Source: Podarcis cretensis (lineage: Eukaryota). From it: a stretch of 64,000 nt of DNA. The notes under the pieces were generated by a model. That model ran no database searches. It had not been told where the DNA came from and saw only the letters and a program-made list of their open reading frames with translations. The stretch lies in NCBI GenBank assembly GCA_951804945.1, contig OX638150.1:37014001-37078000 (forward strand), given 5' to 3'. The translations under genes and the position numbers were made by a program. Positions 6,736-35,583 of the stretch are shown here, piece by piece; the first letter of the stretch is position 1; every line of letters starts with the position of its first letter.

Positions 6736-6933
6736 CCCTAATCATTATACTAGCTGATCTCCCATTGTCTCTGTCGGGGTACATTTTTATTTGCTTGCTT
6801 AATTGGGGAAAGGTTACCATCTGGATGAGCCATGACAAAATGTATGCAGCTGGACGGAATTTTATATGTCCTCACGAATTCTGAACTTTGTGACTGGCAA
6901 TCACGGATGAATTTCTTTCCTTTCTTTTCTCAG

Positions 6934-7089
6934 GGCAAAGAGAAGTTTCTAGCCATCCTGAACAAGTACATGGAGATCCACGGCACTGTTTATTACGAAA
7001 CACAGCGCCCGCCTGAAGTCCCAGCTTTTGTGAAGAATCATGGTCTCTTGCCACAACATGAGTTCCAGCAACTCCTTAGAAAAGCCAAG
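6934..7089 (+). CDS. MGAT5B: MGAT5B coding exon GKEKFLAILNKYMEIHGTVYYETQRPPEVPAFVKNHGLLPQHEFQQLLRKAK
   Basis: Acceptor tttcttttctcag|GGC, donor AAG|gtattt; 156 nt, 52 codons; GnT-V family peptide. Confidence 0.97.
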
Positions 7090-7320
7090 GTATTTGCCAC
7101 AGGCAGAAAGAAAGAGGGTTGCGACCAAATGAAACTCTGGCAATAAGAAATTCTCCAGTTGTGGGATTGTTTTTTAAGAGTTATGTGCCAATGTGCTACA
7201 AGGCAAAGGTCTTGGAGCATGCAATGGAAATATTGTGGCAATAAAGATGTGGGAATCCACATGGGACAAAACCCTTAGGCAGTGCTCCAGGGCTGGTAAT
7301 GGTGGTTGGCTGTTTCTTTC

Positions 7321-7831: not shown

Positions 7832-8308
7832 TTTAATTTTTTTTATTGGAGTTTTATTTACAACATAACACAAACCCCCCACCCCCCAATACACAAATCC
7901 ACCCTCATTAAAAGTGAACAAAACATACAGTGAGCATAACATACAACAATACAAACAACCAAATAAAAGACTTCTTTTATCCTGTATCTGGCCTCCTTAT
8001 TTTCTTCTTATAAACGGTTTCCTTTATGAATAATTATTAAGATTTTTCTAATTATAACTTAAATATTCACAAAGTCTCCTGCAGACATTAATCGAAACAA
8101 GTCCAGGTATGTATTTTAGGGCACTGTTTTGTGAAGTATTCTCTGCATTTTCCCCATGCTTTTTGAAACTCTTGTCTAGTGTGATCTCTAATTGCCTCTG
8201 TTAATCTAGCCAGTTCAATATACTCTTAACAGTTTATCTTGCCATTCCTTTTTTGTTGGCACAGTTTCTTTTCCCCCAGTTTTTAGCAATTAGGATCCTT
8301 GCCGCTCC
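7832..8308 (-). mobile_element. L1-clade LINE 3' fragment (ORF2 C-terminus, 3'UTR, polyA)
   Basis: Minus strand reads AARILIAKNW...TVPTKKEWQDKLL/EYIELARLTEAIRDHTRQEFQKAWGKC with frameshifts; T-rich end with tttatt. Confidence 0.8.
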
Positions 8309-9802: not shown

Positions 9803-10665
9803 CATGTGGATGACACCCCATGTGGATACAGAGATTTATTGTATTTATTTTACCAGTGGAGCAACTGGGGCACTGCCTGTCTACTCTCAACCAGCCCCTC
9901 AGCTGTCCACTTTCTAATTTACAACAGCCAGTCGAGTGGCTAGCCCTGCCTGTCAGTTTCCTCCTCCTTAGTCTCAGAGTTGATTCTTTGTAGACCTCAG
10001 CAGGGAGGAGGATGGGAACAAGGCAAGAATGAGTTGGCTCTGCCTGCCATTGGCTCTGGTGCCACCTACTGCTAGTCCTCCTGCCTTCCACCCTACCAGT
10101 CCCAGTTGGCATCAGCCACTTTAATGTATTTTACAAAATGACAGGAACATGCTAAAGGATAAGAGACAAGCCCAATCCCAAATTCACCAATTTCAACTCC
10201 TATGACTGTCTAAATTAAAAATAATAAAAAAAAGGTTTTTAGCTCCACCCCTAGTTTCCTGGGCTAATTCAAATATTTTCATACAAAGGCAACAATATTT
10301 CTGAATAAAGAATATTGTTAAGTAGAAGAATGAAACTGCAACATGCTCAAAGACTATCGTTTGATATCTGCCATGTTCATTAAAATTATATGCAAATTGT
10401 TAATTAGTGACTACTGAAACATGCAAATGAGTAGAAGCTGTCTGGGCCACGTGTCCATTCAACTGTTGTCCTCTTAAAGGACACAGGTTGTTGGTACTGG
10501 ACTAATTGCGGGACTTTCAACCAACAGGTTAAAATGCCAAGCAAAGGACTGGTAGACCATTAACTCCCATGGCAAAGAACTGAAGGGTTAAACAAATAAC
10601 TGAAATAGCTTTAAAATAACGTGGTTGCCAAAGATGCCTGAAATATCTGAATTTTCTCTTTGCAG

Positions 10666-10812
10666 CTCTTCATTGGGTTTGGTTTCCCCTATGAGGGCCC
10701 CGCCCCCTTGGAAGCAATAGCCAATGGGTGTGTTTTCCTGCAGGCTCGTTTCAACCCACCCCACAGTTCACTCAATCATGAATTCTTCAGAGGGAAGCCT
10801 ACATCGAGAGAG
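10666..10812 (+). CDS. MGAT5B: MGAT5B coding exon LFIGFGFPYEGPAPLEAIANGCVFLQARFNPPHSSLNHEFFRGKPTSRE
   Basis: Acceptor tctctttgcag|CTC, donor GAG|gtaagt; 147 nt; conserved GT18 motif GFPYEGPAPLEAIANG; absent from the ORF track. Confidence 0.97.
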
Positions 10813-10882
10813 GTAAGTCTGTTCTGAAATTATGCAGCGAAGATCTTAGACCTGAGCCTAATTGATCTGGGTATGTCTAAAG

Positions 10883-12561: not shown

Positions 12562-12678
12562 GTACCCTCTCAGCATCCCTATGCAGAGGATTTTATAGGG
12601 AAACCCCATGTGTGGACAGTGGACTACAATAATTCAGAGGAATTTGAAGCTGCTATCAAAGTCATTATGAGGACCAAG
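12562..12678 (+). CDS. MGAT5B: MGAT5B coding exon VPSQHPYAEDFIGKPHVWTVDYNNSEEFEAAIKVIMRTK
   Basis: Acceptor tctgtattttag|GTA, donor AAG|gtaact; 117 nt; SQHPYAE-FIG-PHVWTVD motif. Confidence 0.97.
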
Positions 12679-13130
12679 GTAACTGCCAGCCAAGCCTCCT
12701 GAAACATTATTAGTCATAGAAATTGAGCCTTTTATTTCAATATTTTGCCTTAAAAATACCCAAGTGGGTGGATTCAACAAGGACAATGTCAGGTTGAGAA
12801 TGTGAGAATTTGCAGTCCATCTCAGGAAAATAAAGAAAAACATGACCTATTTCAGGTGTATTCTATCCCTGCCCCTACAAACTGTAGGACAGAAAGTCAG
12901 GCCATCTGGATTAGAAGGTGTTAATAAGTGAGTGAGCTATGTTTTGCTTTTACTTTCTTAACTTCTCCTTAAAGTTTCATTTTTAAAAATGTCACTTTCA
13001 ACAAACACAGTTAAAAATAAAAGCTTGGCATTTAGAATCTCAAGACATGGGAGTGTGTCCCTTATGTGACTCCCAAAACACTCTTGAGTGTTTCATGACT
13101 GTTTCCAACTTTATTTTAAGATGTACATAG

Positions 13131-26221: not shown

Positions 26222-28918
26222 TACAACCACCCTTTTGGTGAGTAATGGGAAAACAACTAAGCTGGTCCCGGTCTCTATGAAATTCAGAACCTTCATTGTG
26301 GAAGGCAGACAGCAAGCTGGGCACTCCCAAATAGGAATTTGGCTATAGTGGGCTTCTATGCAGATTTGTACAGGATGTTTTGTGTTCTCAAGTGCCCTAA
26401 CATTTAGAGTCTCTCCTTCTTCCCTCCACTCCAATGTTCTTTCCATAGGCCTGCTGGATTTAGTAGCTAATCATATCCCTCATTTAAATGCTAATCTCTC
26501 TCAGCAGCAGGGACCCATTTTACATACAGCTTGACTTTTCTGGTGCAGTAAAGCTTAAGCTCAAAATGTAAAATATCCAATGAGATTCCTCAGGGCTTTT
26601 TCTTCTTCTTTGGGGATAGTGGGGGGTGGGATAGGAAATAAAAGAATGATGATAGATGGAGAGATGAAACATTGCCTGTAAAGCTGGGAAATGGCCATTT
26701 ACTTCCTTTGTCTTTTTATTATTATCATTGGGGCAAGGGGAATAAGACTTCCGTTCAATCCCAGGCCAGAAGTAACCTTTTGTGCTGCCTGTCAGGGCCA
26801 GCCCAAGTCATTTTGCTGCCTGAAACAAAGGACAAATGCCACATACAGAAGCTGGTTGGACTGGTTGTTGAATCTTACTTCAGCAATGCAATGCAATAGG
26901 CAGGCAAGTTTACGGGGCACATGCATCTTGGTTCTCCAACAGAGGGGCATGACTAGGGGATGCGGGAGGAAAAACCAGAAGGGCCACTGCTGCTGTACCA
27001 CAACACTCCACCTCAGCACCTACCATCTGAGGCAATTGCTTCATTCTGCCTCATGGCAGGGCTGGCCACCATGCCTATCTGGGACTTCAGCTAAAAACTG
27101 CAGGAAATACTGCTCCAGGGTTGTGCAAGTAAAGGTAGGGGCCTTTACAAGCCACACTTCCAACTTCACCCTCACCCCAAATTTAATCTAAATCATTGGC
27201 TCCCCATAACCTTCTATAAACAGCACCTGGCAAGGGTCTGCCACAAGAAATGAGGGGACCGGGCTCTGTCCCCATTTAATCTGAGCACTGGGAATTTTGC
27301 ATATTATTTCCCCTTGTTGATTGTGCTGACTGCCAGGAAGCTTAATTCTTCCTCCTGCGGCCAGAACATTTGAAGCAAGGCCTCCTAGGCTCAACAGGCC
27401 AAAGGGGGCCCAGCTCAACATCCTGACATCACCCGTGTGATGTTGCATGATGTCTGGACATCATGAGAAGCCAGGGGGTGGAGCCAAACACCCTCTGAAC
27501 ATTGAGGGGACCTGGCCTCCTCAAAAAAACAACCCATGGGGGGCTGAAAGTATCTCGGCCCCTAGGGGCCGGCACCTATGCTCACAGGCCAATGTGTTTA
27601 GGAATACAGCCTAAGTCTATGCTGCATCTGAGAAAGAATGAATGTGAAAAATCAGCACAGTTCTTAGCCAGCTTCTAGAGATCAAATCCAGAAAAGCCCA
27701 ACATGGACATGCCTGTGTTCACAGTCTTAGTATCAAATGGGAAAAGAACAGGTGAGAGGGTGAAAGGAAGATGTAAGATCAGATACTTCTTAACTTCAAA
27801 GGAAATCTATCCTGTTGTCATCAGTCACTGCTAAGCTGCTTAAAAACCAAACTCCCTTAGTGTGATGGGTTTTATAGTTATTTCTTTGCTCTTCAGAAGA
27901 AGAACAGGCCTATCTAGAGCATACAGGGGTCTTTTGCTGGAAGCAGAGAAGATGCCATGCACTTTTAATCACTGAGCTTTAGTTTGATTCTTAATTGGCA
28001 TATTTTTAACCAACTTTGATCTTTTTTAAAAAAAGAGGGAGAGGGGAAAGAGAAAGGGAAGGCGGAAGCTCATTAGGAGCCACTTGTCCTGGTGAGCCCA
28101 TCTGTTGTTGGGTCTCTTTCCTTTCAAGATGAGGCTTCATCCACCTGTCTCCTGGTAGCAGATGGAGGCAGGCATCTGCTGGCATTGCCTGTTGTGAGTG
28201 TTTCTGACAGATCCATCAGGATGCTTGCCAGCATTCCTAAGGAGGAGAGGCTCATACACAAGGAAAGCTTTGCCGAGGAGCAAGCCTGAAGCCAAGTCAT
28301 GTGCGCACAGGCAGGCCCAGCTGAACAAGCCAGCAGTCTTGCGCACTTCAACAGCTTTGCACCAGAAAACAATTCTGGAGGGGTGAATTCATTCTGGTTG
28401 AAGTGATCTGAAGAATATTTGCATCCTTCTTTGTAACTCTTAATGGCAGGTGATGGCCTGCAGTTCTGGGGTTTTGGGGATTTAAAAATCTGATAACTGT
28501 CAGATTACTGACCACCTTGCCACTAGATTTCTAGATTTCCTATTGGAGGAAAAAAATGAATGGCTTTTCAGCTATCAAATCATGTGTTATCTGAATGGAT
28601 ATTCCCATGCTCTGGAGGTTAAATATTTGTTCATTGCACATTTTCCTTCCTTCTGGCATCTTAGTCCCCCCACATATGGTTTGCTGAGCTCTTCTGTCTT
28701 CCCAGATCCTTGCCAATAATTCAGAAGCCTGCAAAACTTGAGGAAGGCTGCAAATTAAGGACGTGTGATCAAATTTACAAATTTGCCTCTTTCTTCCAAT
28801 GCAACATGTTAGGCATGCAGATTACAAGATATTGGGTTTTTCACTCGACAGAAAGTGGTGATGGGGATAGCCTTCTTGCACTGATCCATGCCTATGCTGT
28901 GCTTTTCCCTTTCTCCAG

Positions 28919-28993
28919 GTTGATCCTTACCTGCCCTATGAATACACCTCTGAAGGGATGCTGGAGCGAATTCATGCCTACATTCAGTACCAG
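28919..28993 (+). CDS. MGAT5B: MGAT5B coding exon VDPYLPYEYTSEGMLERIHAYIQYQ
   Basis: Acceptor ttttccctttctccag|GTT, donor CAG|gtagtt; 75 nt, 25 codons. Confidence 0.96.
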
Positions 28994-29134
28994 GTAGTTG
29001 ATTTGCATCTTCTTCTACAGCTCTTTGTGATTAAGTCTAGGAGGCAAGTGGTTTCCTGCCCCGAAGGTGGTAATGAATGGCACAATAACCACTCACTTTG
29101 GTTGTATGAGTTAAATTTTTACCAGTGTCTAGAG

Positions 29135-29269: not shown

Positions 29270-29589
29270 GTCTAGAGAGTTATGTCTTGGAGTGGGGGTT
29301 GGGAAGTCAGCGGAAATTGGGGAGATGTAGCTCTTCTGATATCTTTTTCCAAGGATTAGCAAAATTGAATTAATTATATGGTTATTTATTTCTGAGCTCC
29401 CCGCCCCCAGAAGTACAAGTTTCATCTATTTCTGAGCTTTTTTCCTCATGGTTCTGACAGTTTCTATTTTCAGCATTTATTATGTGTGATGTTTCCCACA
29501 CACACACACACACCGCCTCGCATTTGCTAACTGGCAAAACGCTACACTTTGGGATCTTAGGACACATCAGCTTGTAGCTCCATTTTTAA

Positions 29590-31700
29590 AAATAATATTT
29601 ATTGCTTTTAAACCTTACAAACAAGAAGAAAAAGAAAAGGAGAAAAAAGAAGAAAAAACAAAAGAAAGAAAAAACAATACAATGCAATATATAAACAATA
29701 CACCACACAACATTAACGCATTAAACTAAACAAAACAGAACAAAAACAATTTAAAAAACATACATCATACCATTTCAATGCCTTATCTTTCATTCCCTTT
29801 TTTCATTGACTTCCTCTCACCTCCCTTTTTGTATTCCACTTCTATTAATTGTTTCAGCAATTCCTTTCCATCTTTCACTATTTTCTGTCATATAAATATC
29901 TTAACTTATTTTAACCTTTTTTCCATTAATACTATAATACTTATTTATGCTTAACTCCTTATAACACTTCTACTAAAGCCATATAATTTCATTCCAACAT
30001 TTTTCTAGCACTCATTAATTTTACCATATTTCTATAAATAAGCTTTAAACTTTTTCCAATCTTCTTCCACCGTCTCTTCTCCCTGGTCTCGGATTCTGCC
30101 AGTCATTTCCGTCAATTCCATATAGTCCATCAACCTGGTGATCTTCTGTCCGAGGCTCTTAACTCTTTTCCAGGTCCCTTCTGCAAGTCCTCTTCGTATT
30201 TATACATACACTTTACTTTGTCTTCTGCTGATCTTGTTCTTAATTTCCTTTCTTTGATGCTGAAGAGTAGGTCTCGGGGGAGCTCCAACCTAGCAATGTT
30301 TTTATTCCTTCTCGACATGTCATCCACATCTCCGTGGTTAAAACTAAAATCCAAAAGATATTTCAGGACGTGTTTCAAAATCCCTCCAAATCTGAAGGTC
30401 CCCACAACTCCCATTTCCTTCTGACCCAGGTCCAGATCCCAAAGGTCAATAAATCCCTGCATGAGATGATCTATCCAACTTTCCTTCTCCAGTCCAAGCA
30501 GGGTTCCAATCTGACTTTCTCTGAATTCAATCATAGAGGGCAACAACTTGTAGTCATCAAATTGCCTCTGTAAGGCTGGGGCTCTCTCCCTCTCCACTTG
30601 TATTACTTTAGGTTCAGCAACCACAACTTTCTCCCTCACTTTCTCCATCATTTGGCATGTCAGAGTAGATTCCTGTATCGGTTCCTGAATAGTTTGTGTG
30701 TAGATGTTCACTTTTTGTCCCAAAATATCAATTTTAATATTCATCACATCCGTCTTCTTATGGAGCTGTTCCAATGACTGACTTATCTTGCATAGTGCAA
30801 TCACTAAGGCTTCTTCTGTCGACATTCTCAAGCAATCCAAGGTCAATCTCATGGTTTTCTCTTGTAGCTGGAGATTCCACCAGCCCAACTCTTGTAACAA
30901 TTTCAAAGGCTCCCTCTAGAGGGAAACAATTTCTGTTTGTATCAATCCTTTTAAGCACAGTTCAAGCAGTAAAATTAGTTTCAATTTTCAGCTACTTTTA
31001 CTCCTTTTTAAACGCAGAAGGAGACAATGGAAACAATGTATTTCTCTTATTTAACTACCTGTCACAGTCAATGAACTTTCCCAAAAACGTCAATCTTACT
31101 AGCAGTCCATTTCCAGGTTCAGAGCGGTGGTGATCCAACTTTCTTCACTCTCTCCTGCAGGCTTACACGATCCAAAATTTCCCCCCTCTTCTCCTGCCTC
31201 CAAGGGGGGTTTAATGATTTTAGCTGATGGAAGTTGAATCCTTTACATAGGACTTTCCAAGACTCTTTGCTTCAATCTATTTACAAAAGGGGAAGGCGGA
31301 CTTCCTGTTTGAAACCTCCCCATTTTGGTGCCAAATTAAGACGTTTAAAAATCCAATTTTCCGTTCTACTCATGGGTAGTTGTTTAGAATCAAATTGTCC
31401 ACAGGAAAAAGTCAGCGCTCTCCGGCAGCAGCAATGCGGCTTCACTCCGTGAAAGAAGCAGTCAATTCGAAGCACCGCACCGCTCACCCCACATCGCTCC
31501 GGATCCCTGAAACTGGGTCTCCCCGTGAGTAGGGGAGGCGCAAAAGGTGCCAGCCGAATCCCACGTTCACAGGCTTCTCCCGCCTGCGATTTTTAGTGGG
31601 TCTCCGCCTTTGCCGTGGCGGCCAGACCCTGAATTCCACGGAGCAAGTTCCTCCCGATCAGAGGAATTCTGCCATTGCCGGAGGCGCTAACCCGGAAGTC
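29590..31700 (-). mobile_element. Complete non-autonomous L1-derived (HAL1-like) retroelement, ~2.1 kb
   Basis: Direct repeat GTAGCTCCATTTTTAA at 29574-29589 and 31701-31716 (minus strand TT|AAAAA L1 endonuclease site); CpG-rich 5' end GACTTCCGG; one long ORF; ORF2 C-terminal remnant; AATAAA at the 3' end. Confidence 0.88.
30130..30852 (-). CDS. Open ORF of the HAL1-like element (240 aa from ATG 30852, 231 aa from ATG 30825); putative divergent L1 ORF1-like protein
   Basis: Longest ORF in the window; N-terminal heptad-like segment (ISQSLEQLHKKTDVMNIKIDILGQKV); ORF1 homology is inferred, not searched. Confidence 0.5.
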   Translation of the reverse strand: MRLTLDCLRMSTEEALVIALCKISQSLEQLHKKTDVMNIKIDILGQKVNIYTQTIQEPIQESTLTCQMMEKVREKVVVAEPKVIQVERERAPALQRQFDDYKLLPSMIEFRESQIGTLLGLEKESWIDHLMQGFIDLWDLDLGQKEMGVVGTFRFGGILKHVLKYLLDFSFNHGDVDDMSRRNKNIARLELPRDLLFSIKERKLRTRSAEDKVKCMYKYEEDLQKGPGKELRASDRRSPG

Positions 31701-32007
31701 GTAGCTCCATTTTTAAGCCTGTGCACAAATATAATTAATTTTCTGAATAAAACTTGAAAGTGTGACCCAACGCCTTATGCATATGGACAGACATCAGCCT
31801 CTAAACATCTCATCTCACTCCAAGATTTACACCACGGAATTGCCTTGTAGATATACCTGGTTTCCCAAGACATACAGTATATCTGTGGTTTTAAAAAATT
31901 CATGTAGCTATGAAACTGCCTCATTCCAAATGATATACTGTATGTAGAGAAATACATTGGTAGGCAGGTAGATGGAACAATGTAACTGAGAAGCTACAAT
32001 ATAATGC

Positions 32008-35376: not shown

Positions 35377-35384
35377 CTTCCAAG

Positions 35385-35583
35385 GCTCAACATTGTCTGT
35401 GACAGCACAGAGTCAGAGATGAATCACCTCTACCCAGCTGTGGCTGAAAATGTCCAGGAGTGCTACCTCCAGAAGGAACCTCTCTTATTCAGCTGTGCAG
35501 GATGCAATACCAAGTACCAGCGCCTCTGCCCCTGCCGCAACTACCGCAAAGGACAAGTGGCACTGTGTGGGGACTGCTTGTGA
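35385..35583 (+). CDS. MGAT5B: MGAT5B last coding exon LNIVCDSTESEMNHLYPAVAENVQECYLQKEPLLFSCAGCNTKYQRLCPCRNYRKGQVALCGDCL*
   Basis: Acceptor cttccaag|G completes the CA+G codon; LLFSCAG...RLCPCR...GQVALC..CL C-terminus; TGA at 35581-35583. Confidence 0.97.

Follow-up and report, generated by a model that had tools for sequence, protein, structure and literature searches.

Within a 64,000-nucleotide (nt) stretch of the genome of the lizard Podarcis cretensis (assembly GCA_951804945.1, contig OX638150.1, positions 37,014,001 to 37,078,000; hereafter, the window), we identified a minus-strand element of 2111 nt that has been copied as a unit to hundreds of places in this lizard genome. The element very probably belongs to a family derived from the retrotransposon L1 that is mobilized in trans and carries an open reading frame (ORF) kept open by selection. 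Judged by sequence comparison, this frame is a cut-down L1 ORF1. An original prediction, made from the letters of the window alone, was borne out in so far as it spoke of an L1-derived element that is non-autonomous, present in many copies and equipped with an ORF1-type frame but not with ORF2. Its description of the frame as an "intact orphan ORF" has to be given up, since the frame is neither: it derives from ORF1, is short of 52 N-terminal residues and roughly half of the RRM, and no longer has certain conserved residues.

The element lies between two copies of a perfect 16-nt direct repeat, GTAGCTCCATTTTTAA (29574-29589 and 31701-31716; spacing, 2127 nt), and its 5' end starts with GACTTCCGG. 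As the first TT of GTAGCTCCATTTTTAA may be the element's own T/A tail, the target-site duplication measures 14-16 nt. Its parts are as follows, in window coordinates, where "parent" denotes the L1 family described further below.

29590-31700, minus strand: whole element, 2111 nt, family B2; nearest sampled copy 2.35% distant.
31701-31716, plus strand: 5'-side target-site duplication, 14-16 nt, identical to 29574-29589.
30826-31700, minus strand: L1-derived 5' untranslated region (UTR), CpG-rich in its first 300 nt; ~87% identity to the parent L1 5' UTR.
3' end of the 5' UTR, minus strand: deletion that took the parent's start codon and 52-residue basic N-terminus.
30130-30825, minus strand: ORF1 derivative of 231 codons, whose start is an internal Met of the parent (MSTEE).
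30510-30825, minus strand: coiled-coil remnant of ~106 residues, with 21-nt (heptad-sized) indels and prolines in its C-terminal half; helix 57-168 in the model of the parent.
30376-30509, minus strand: RRM remnant, with beta1 shortened and alpha1 and beta2 retained.
Junction 30385/30384, minus strand: 126-nt RRM deletion, which removed parent residues 217-258 (beta3, alpha2, hairpin, half of beta4).
30135-30375, minus strand: segment derived from the C-terminal domain (CTD), and tail; the parent's family-wide Arg272 and Trp291 substituted.
30130-30135, minus strand: ORF1/ORF2 deletion junction (30135/30134), with the ORF1 tail and nearly all of ORF2 gone; stop codon supplied.
30032-30130, minus strand: 32-codon remnant of the ORF2 C-terminus, entered via TGATG.
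29590-30031, minus strand: remaining ORF2 end and L1 3' UTR with a T-rich tract; AATAAA at 29603-29598.
29574-29589, plus strand: 3'-side target-site duplication, fused with a very short A tail.

The perfect repeats, the 2.1-kb minus-strand element between them and the AATAAA near its 3' end had all been predicted and lie where they were placed. The same holds for the CpG-rich 5' region (23 CpG in the first 300 nt versus 20 in the remaining 1811 nt), which presumably contains an internal promoter. Also as predicted, no endonuclease or reverse transcriptase (RT) frame was found within the element, the last 32 codons being all that is left of ORF2. For the frame itself the picture was mixed. The predicted length of 231-240 amino acids (aa) is correct, in that the ORF at 30852-30130 encodes 240 aa if read from its first ATG, or 231 aa if read from MSTEE (30825); however, the first ATG is not the start of the family, since it reads GTG in 56 of the 71 copies showing that codon, so that the family start is MSTEE. 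Likewise, TGATG does lead into 32 ORF2 codons at 30130-30032, but the supposed stop/start overlap is a mere by-product: the motif consists of ORF2's own Leu-Met codons, placed behind ORF1 by the deletion. Splicing as the source of this deletion was rejected, as there is no GT at the left breakpoint. Of the two tandem heptads that the family has near 30729-30710, the window copy has only one.

Flanking duplications and target features are established marks of L1-type retrotransposition, and both recur among the copies of the element. When the genome was searched with the ORF, the best 150 of 7377 candidates matched at 84-100% identity. A 23-nt pattern spanning the RRM deletion junction had 213 exact genome matches (control, 0), so that the search for further copies, for which the original prediction had asked, did not end with a single one. 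The ORF1/ORF2 junction, which is common to the families that we designate D, C and B, had 641 exact matches on many contigs. We inspected the first 97 listed of the 213 RRM junction matches, on contigs C1-C6, taken without regard to an intact frame. The 5' end was present in 73 of these B copies, the 3' end in 86 and both (full length) in 68, and 61 of the 97 carried a flanking repeat of at least 10 nt. In 39 clean-ended copies, the duplications measured 11-22 nt and the target was purine-rich after the nick. Since T occupied position -1 in only 14 of these 39 and AAAA followed in 6, the insertion target is a loose L1-type site rather than the strict TT/AAAA that had been proposed. The frame was open in 37 of 72 unselected copies spanning the ORF. 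Among 41 sampled copies, the median difference was 4% (minimum, 2%). The element can thus be called young, as predicted, in a relative sense, but not beside the intact L1 families of this genome, the copies of which differ by 0.4-0.8%. A search of public runs listed no RNA record with the family. In two other organisms (coded B and C), contigs X3, X11 and X15 of runs merely guessed to be of RNA span its RRM junction; they attest to the presence of the sequence and not to its transcription. As family B sequence occurs in public runs of other organisms (coded B, C and D), it is probably common to related lizards.

Two further observations concern individual copies. Four neighboring B copies (L099-L102, C2:123.16-123.45 Mb) have alike ends and an identical frame break, and are probably a segmental duplication. 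In copies L004, L009, L017, L034 and L043, the 5' part is duplicated, inverted or tandem, as in L1 insertions.

The origin of the ORF was traced through its single database match, a Podarcis model fusing L1 ORF1 and ORF2 pieces. A genome search with this model yielded copies of the parent L1 (6.2 kb in 4 of 6 measured), which has its 5' UTR and 3' end in common with the element, an ORF1 of ~390 aa, and endonuclease/RT frames. A profile of the parent ORF1 (134 sequences) matched human ORF1p (2YKP, E=3.6e-27), so that the comparison with L1 ORF1p proposed in the original prediction established homology by way of the parent; a model of the parent ORF1p (mean predicted local distance difference test score [pLDDT], 78) matched the human trimer chains (E=3e-11). 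PF02994 was matched by 26 of the 134 aligned relatives of the parent ORF1, with no direct match for the window protein or the parent protein alone; a Pfam scan of the window ORF gave no match, and a search of the genome with the PF02994 profile, which matched nothing anywhere, was uninformative. A feature-similarity search for the element reached 0.85 at best and was taken as a lead only.

The window protein aligns to the parent ORF1p in its coiled coil, RRM and CTD parts. Relative to the parent model, its family has lost both ends (the basic N-terminus of 52 residues and the C-terminal tail) and, within the RRM, residues 217-258 and part of beta1. The lost N-terminal residues included 9 K/R and 3 D/E, whereas MSTEE, with which the protein now begins, is acidic. 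Replacements affect four of the five nearly invariant ORF1 columns (E180, R272, L282 [only by Met] and W291), and the net charge of the RRM plus CTD falls from +10 in the parent to -1. As modeled, the window protein would be unable to form the RRM. The ORF diverges from the parent by 20-22%, versus 12-14% for the UTRs.

This reduction proceeded in steps, and the intermediate forms survive as families. The order of loss is: ORF2; the basic N-terminus, through a fixed stop and then a deletion; heptad-sized indels in the coiled coil; a 45-nt and then a 126-nt deletion in the RRM; and conserved CTD residues. More specifically, family D (2.43 kb) has undergone the ORF2 deletion and the first RRM deletion, of 45 nt; upstream of MSTEE, at codon 10, a TAG is fixed. 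The TAG was present in 20 of 20 D copies in which the codon was read, most of which had been picked for it; downstream the frame is still open, and only the frame from MSTEE is long, which serves as an internal control for selection on the frame. In family C (2.25 kb, 199 junction matches), the N-terminus is physically gone, as are two heptads and one codon. Families B3, B4, B1 and B2 share the 126-nt RRM deletion and a re-duplicated heptad, and B2, the family of the window copy, has lost 9 further nt of beta1. In a tree, the families branch in the order of their deletions, with support of 100 for each of the D+C+B and C+B groupings and weaker nodes within B, where one junk row (L216) lies on a long branch. 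The rows used in trees and counts comprised 59 of 97 B copies, 22 of 30 C copies, 13 D, 3 B3, 3 B4, 6 of 7 A and 6 L1. The B rows were single near-full-length matches, from which three neighbors were left out as likely segmental duplicates; C copies had been chosen by protein score and D copies mostly by the TAG, so that these two samples carry a bias. A mosaic origin by recombination was rejected, as the informative sites (22 for D+C+B, 50 for C+B) are spread along the element without a block pattern. A further family, A, groups with L1 copies and retains the whole ORF1 core, and its junction is longer by 6 nt (39 matches). Family A is the ordinary HAL1 (half-L1) form in this genome, and may be either the first step or a second origin. 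Median pairwise distances were 3.4-4.0% for all half-L1 families and 5.9% for the parent.

Path lengths from the shared node, at non-CpG sites, were ~0.03 for the parent L1, 0.05 for D, 0.11 for C and 0.18 for B2. The B lineage thus changed several-fold faster than its relatives, although the half-L1 copies are similar in age; many serial rounds of copying would explain this.

Selection on the frame was assessed against the changes private to single B copies, which served as the neutral yardstick: 206 nonsynonymous (N), 83 synonymous (S) and 15 stops, 304 in total. Whereas private ORF indels were in frame in 8 of 28 cases, all 9 lineage-level ORF indels were (p=0.0002; 8 of 8, p=0.0004, if two heptad deletions are counted as one event). 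These measured 45, 21, 21, 3, +21 and 126 nt, 9 nt in B2, 15 nt in 13 B2 copies and 9 nt in B3. In the UTRs, by comparison, only 3 of 20 fixed indels had a length divisible by three. Similarly, no stop occurred among ~212 fixed differences, versus 15 among the 304 private changes (P ~2e-5), and in each family the most frequent sequence has an open frame; together with the unselected open copies, this upholds the earlier expectation that the ORF is kept in the family. Amino-acid change was reduced as well: B1 and B2 differ by 17.5 N : 17.5 S against the private 206 : 83 (ratio, 0.40; p=0.013), and the ratio was 0.46 (p=0.003) when this comparison was pooled with shared variants and 0.51 for shared variants alone. 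Outside CpG codons, the ratios were 0.30 (B1-B2) and 0.35 (shared variants). Step by step, the relative N/S was 0.19 from parent to A, 0.40 from parent to D, 0.68 from D to C, 0.9-1.2 from C to B and 0.40 between B1 and B2. Constraint thus loosened, disappeared around the large RRM deletion and then came back. These results indicate that the ORF1 frame is maintained by selection, with moderate purifying selection in the youngest families (N/S at 0.4-0.5 of neutral). One-sided C-to-T editing was rejected: the excess of C>T over G>A reaches significance in the ORF but not in the UTRs, and in the ORF it is accompanied by an excess of T>C over A>G, so that we read it as silent third-position change.

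Potential helpers are present in the genome. By eye, ~60 of 150 endonuclease matches lie in frames of >1200 aa. Two sister L1 families (L231-L242; e.g., C12:47963400-47970900) have an intact ORF1, and a 1256-aa ORF2 in 12 of 14 fetched copies. These two families are 12% apart, their copies differing internally by the 0.4-0.8% given above, and they match the element at 81-84% over the ORF2-end segment, with little else in common. The amplification of the half-L1 families, which may be quiet now, postdates the sampled parent copies and predates the intact L1 families of today. Apart from this, two TRIM39-like models of Podarcis muralis (P0003 and P0004) end in the RRM-CTD of this clade's L1 ORF1, being either an annotation artifact or an exonized ORF1.

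How would such an element be mobilized? In the mechanism that we favor, to which we give an even chance, the shrunken ORF1p would act as a coiled-coil adaptor without RNA binding that co-assembles with a helper ORF1p. Transcription would start from the inherited L1 5' UTR, as L1 biology suggests, and the shrunken ORF1 would be translated into a protein predicted to have lost RNA binding. The coiled-coil remnant would then join the ORF1p of an intact helper L1, the adaptor would draw the element RNA into the helper particle, and borrowed ORF2p would, again by analogy with L1, copy this RNA in trans by target-primed reverse transcription. We favor an adaptor because amino-acid constraint persists after the loss of the RNA-binding core and because the coiled-coil indels, which come in 21-nt units, keep the heptad unit. 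Distinct human coiled coils, when co-expressed, form heterotrimers (PMC10588031), and multimerization with the protein of the autonomous partner is the role proposed for HAL1-type ORF1 proteins (PMC5786205). When the window coiled coil was modeled together with two parent coiled coils, the complex scored 0.52 (best control, 0.00), with runs agreeing in at least 66% of contacts and a partner pLDDT of at least 63. In benchmarking, 51 of 78 solved pairs passed the mark, and so did 2 of 108 mismatched ones; as scores of 0.60 or below included only 5 of the 78 solved pairs and all 4 mismatches that passed, and as a similar complex (the human trimer) is already solved, so that the score may reflect likeness only, this prediction is weak support.

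A number of findings weigh against this adaptor, or against any strong role of the protein. Between C and B1, amino acids changed as fast as under neutrality (66.5 N : 23.5 S; ratio, 1.14; p=0.79), as would be expected if the frame alone mattered; region-wise tests reached p<0.05 in only one case (shared variants, N-terminal coiled coil, p=0.04); and the results for B3 and B4 rest on three copies each. No confident model came from folding the window protein alone and without an alignment (mean pLDDT, 36.5). The coiled coil gained prolines (from 1 to 4), in the C-terminal half that seeds trimers in human ORF1p (PMC5940361), and the heptad indels may be favored by the 21-nt tandem repeat itself, which was lost again in several copies. 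As for the helper, the ORF1p of the intact sister L1 is only 28% identical to the window protein, and no intact ORF2 of the parent family was found among the best 150 matches (longest frame, 979 aa). Finally, a construct made up of the coiled coil only, with no N-terminus, neither heterodimerized with full ORF1p nor suppressed L1 in human cells, whereas fragments with the N-terminus did both (PMC5605252). This result could explain the early loss of the N-terminus, or it could mean that the window protein does not join the helper. Taking the former possibility, we tentatively put forward, as an extension somewhat less likely than not, a "quarter-L1": a half-L1 lineage whose ORF1p, once an RNA chaperone, became step by step a coiled-coil adaptor that does not bind RNA, shedding first the N-terminus, with which such fragments would be toxic to the helper, and then the RRM, the remainder entering intact L1 particles.

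The main rival, which we regard as rather unlikely, holds that translation alone matters: the open frame would keep the RNA on ribosomes and stable, thereby capturing helper ORF2p (and ORF1p), and the protein would be largely inert. The absence of fixed stops and frameshifts despite the neutral amino-acid change from C to B is what this explanation predicts, and the near-equal codon-position differences between B1 and the parent (49/49/45), the loss of motifs in every domain and the prolines in the coiled coil agree with it; it is at odds with the reduced amino-acid change between B1 and B2 and among shared variants, which is more pronounced outside CpG codons, and with the heptad register preserved in the coiled-coil indels. 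That same return of purifying selection after the burst of change would also fit a re-tooled mini-ORF1p that still homotrimerizes and binds its own RNA via the CTD, making the element an ordinary HAL1 with a compact ORF1p. Its coiled coil and CTD are indeed in frame and the CTD retains basic stretches, but the core of the RRM is gone, R272 and W291 are substituted, and net charge has been lost; as human ORF1p binds RNA through RRM and CTD jointly (10.1101/721357) and human L1 depends on the basic N-terminus (PMC5940361), we consider this improbable.

Two explanations would dispense with selection or with a family altogether. A neutral remnant, in which the ORF is open by chance in a passenger recognized only by its 3' end, like a short interspersed nuclear element (SINE), is highly improbable: about half of the copies are broken (37 of 72 open) and change from C to B is neutral-like, but broken copies are expected after insertion, and the 9 of 9 in-frame indels (8 of 28 among private ones), the absence of stops among ~212 fixed differences and the reduced amino-acid change speak for selection. 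A single full-length L1 deleted after its insertion would suit the window, which holds nothing beyond one copy, and is as good as refuted by the 213 and 641 exact junction matches on many contigs and by copies with flanking repeats of their own. If the quarter-L1 is real, families D, C, B3, B4, B1 and B2 form a natural deletion series separating ORF1p assembly from RNA binding; and since all intermediate forms exist in one genome, RNA binding, co-assembly and translation alone are directly testable against one another.

The ORF2 remnant varies less than its surroundings: across the half-L1 families, 14 of 94 columns of the ORF2-end segment are variable, versus 88 of 322 in the 3' UTR (p=0.014). 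A conserved re-initiated peptide is not favored, as its length varies by family (28, 32 and 27/48 codons, with B3 frameshifted), although 35 of 41 B2 copies retain the 32 codons; a folded RNA element found no support (z=+0.52). The segment (30130-30032) may serve ORF2p or host factors in cis. The similarity of the remnant to an L1 fragment at 7832-8308 of the window, suggested earlier, did not hold up, amounting to 32% amino-acid identity with no significant DNA match; that fragment is the 3' end of a different L1 family.

In the window, the element is flanked on either side by an exon-like match, on the opposite strand, of a gene of glycosyltransferase family 18 (MGAT5-type), which places it in an intron, in antisense orientation:

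28916-28996, plus strand: upstream exon-like match of the host gene (PF15024 positions 428-454; contig 37042916-37042996).
33520-33840, plus strand: downstream exon-like match (PF15024 positions 439-509; contig 37047520-37047840).

Further exon-like matches of this gene lie on the plus strand at 6928-7095, 10654-10845, 12562-12684 and 35377-35535.

The primary papers on mammalian HAL1 elements are said to be those of Smit (1999) and of Bao and Jurka (2010). Mammalian HAL1 is a non-autonomous deletion derivative of L1 with an ORF1-derived frame and no ORF2 (PMC5753468, PMC5786205). The window element resembles it in its internal L1 deletion, in keeping both L1 ends and an ORF1-derived frame without ORF2, and in its many copies with target-site duplications. 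It differs in its squamate host, in having further lost from ORF1 the basic N-terminus, half the RRM and conserved residues of the CTD, and in the survival of intermediates as families. A complete ORF1p (coiled coil, RRM and CTD), as in HAL1, is found in the sister family A only and not in the window family; on sequence grounds we therefore class the element as a variant of the HAL1 plan. Our literature search found no description of HAL1-type parasites in squamates, repeat libraries (Dfam, Repbase, supplements) lying outside that search, and in the accessible text of a study of vertebrate L1s that includes lizards (PMC5381506), neither HAL1 nor the term non-autonomous is mentioned; the present families would extend such parasites to this group.

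Comparison with human L1 ORF1p (PDB 2YKO/2YKP/2LDY/2W7A) shows the same coiled coil-RRM-CTD fold in the parent protein, whereas the N-terminal charges needed in the human protein (PMC5940361) are absent from the window protein. Truncated or heterologous ORF1p variants acting in trans (PMC5605252; PMC10588031) show that proteins bearing the coiled coil can enter full ORF1p trimers; those, however, are laboratory constructs or dead loci that suppress L1, whereas the family of the window protein amplified and lacks the N-terminus that suppression needs. HeT-A and Ag-Sponge (PMC5786205), compared here by description only, are likewise ORF1-only partners of an autonomous long interspersed nuclear element (LINE), proposed to multimerize with the protein of their partner, but belong to other LINE clades (Jockey and CR1). 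HAL1 itself being known, the surprising part is the stepwise dismantling of ORF1p under continued selection on the frame: this lineage shed parts that human L1 requires, and yet reached hundreds of copies with an open frame, which touches on why HAL1 keeps ORF1 and on the part of ORF1p in choosing the RNA that is copied.

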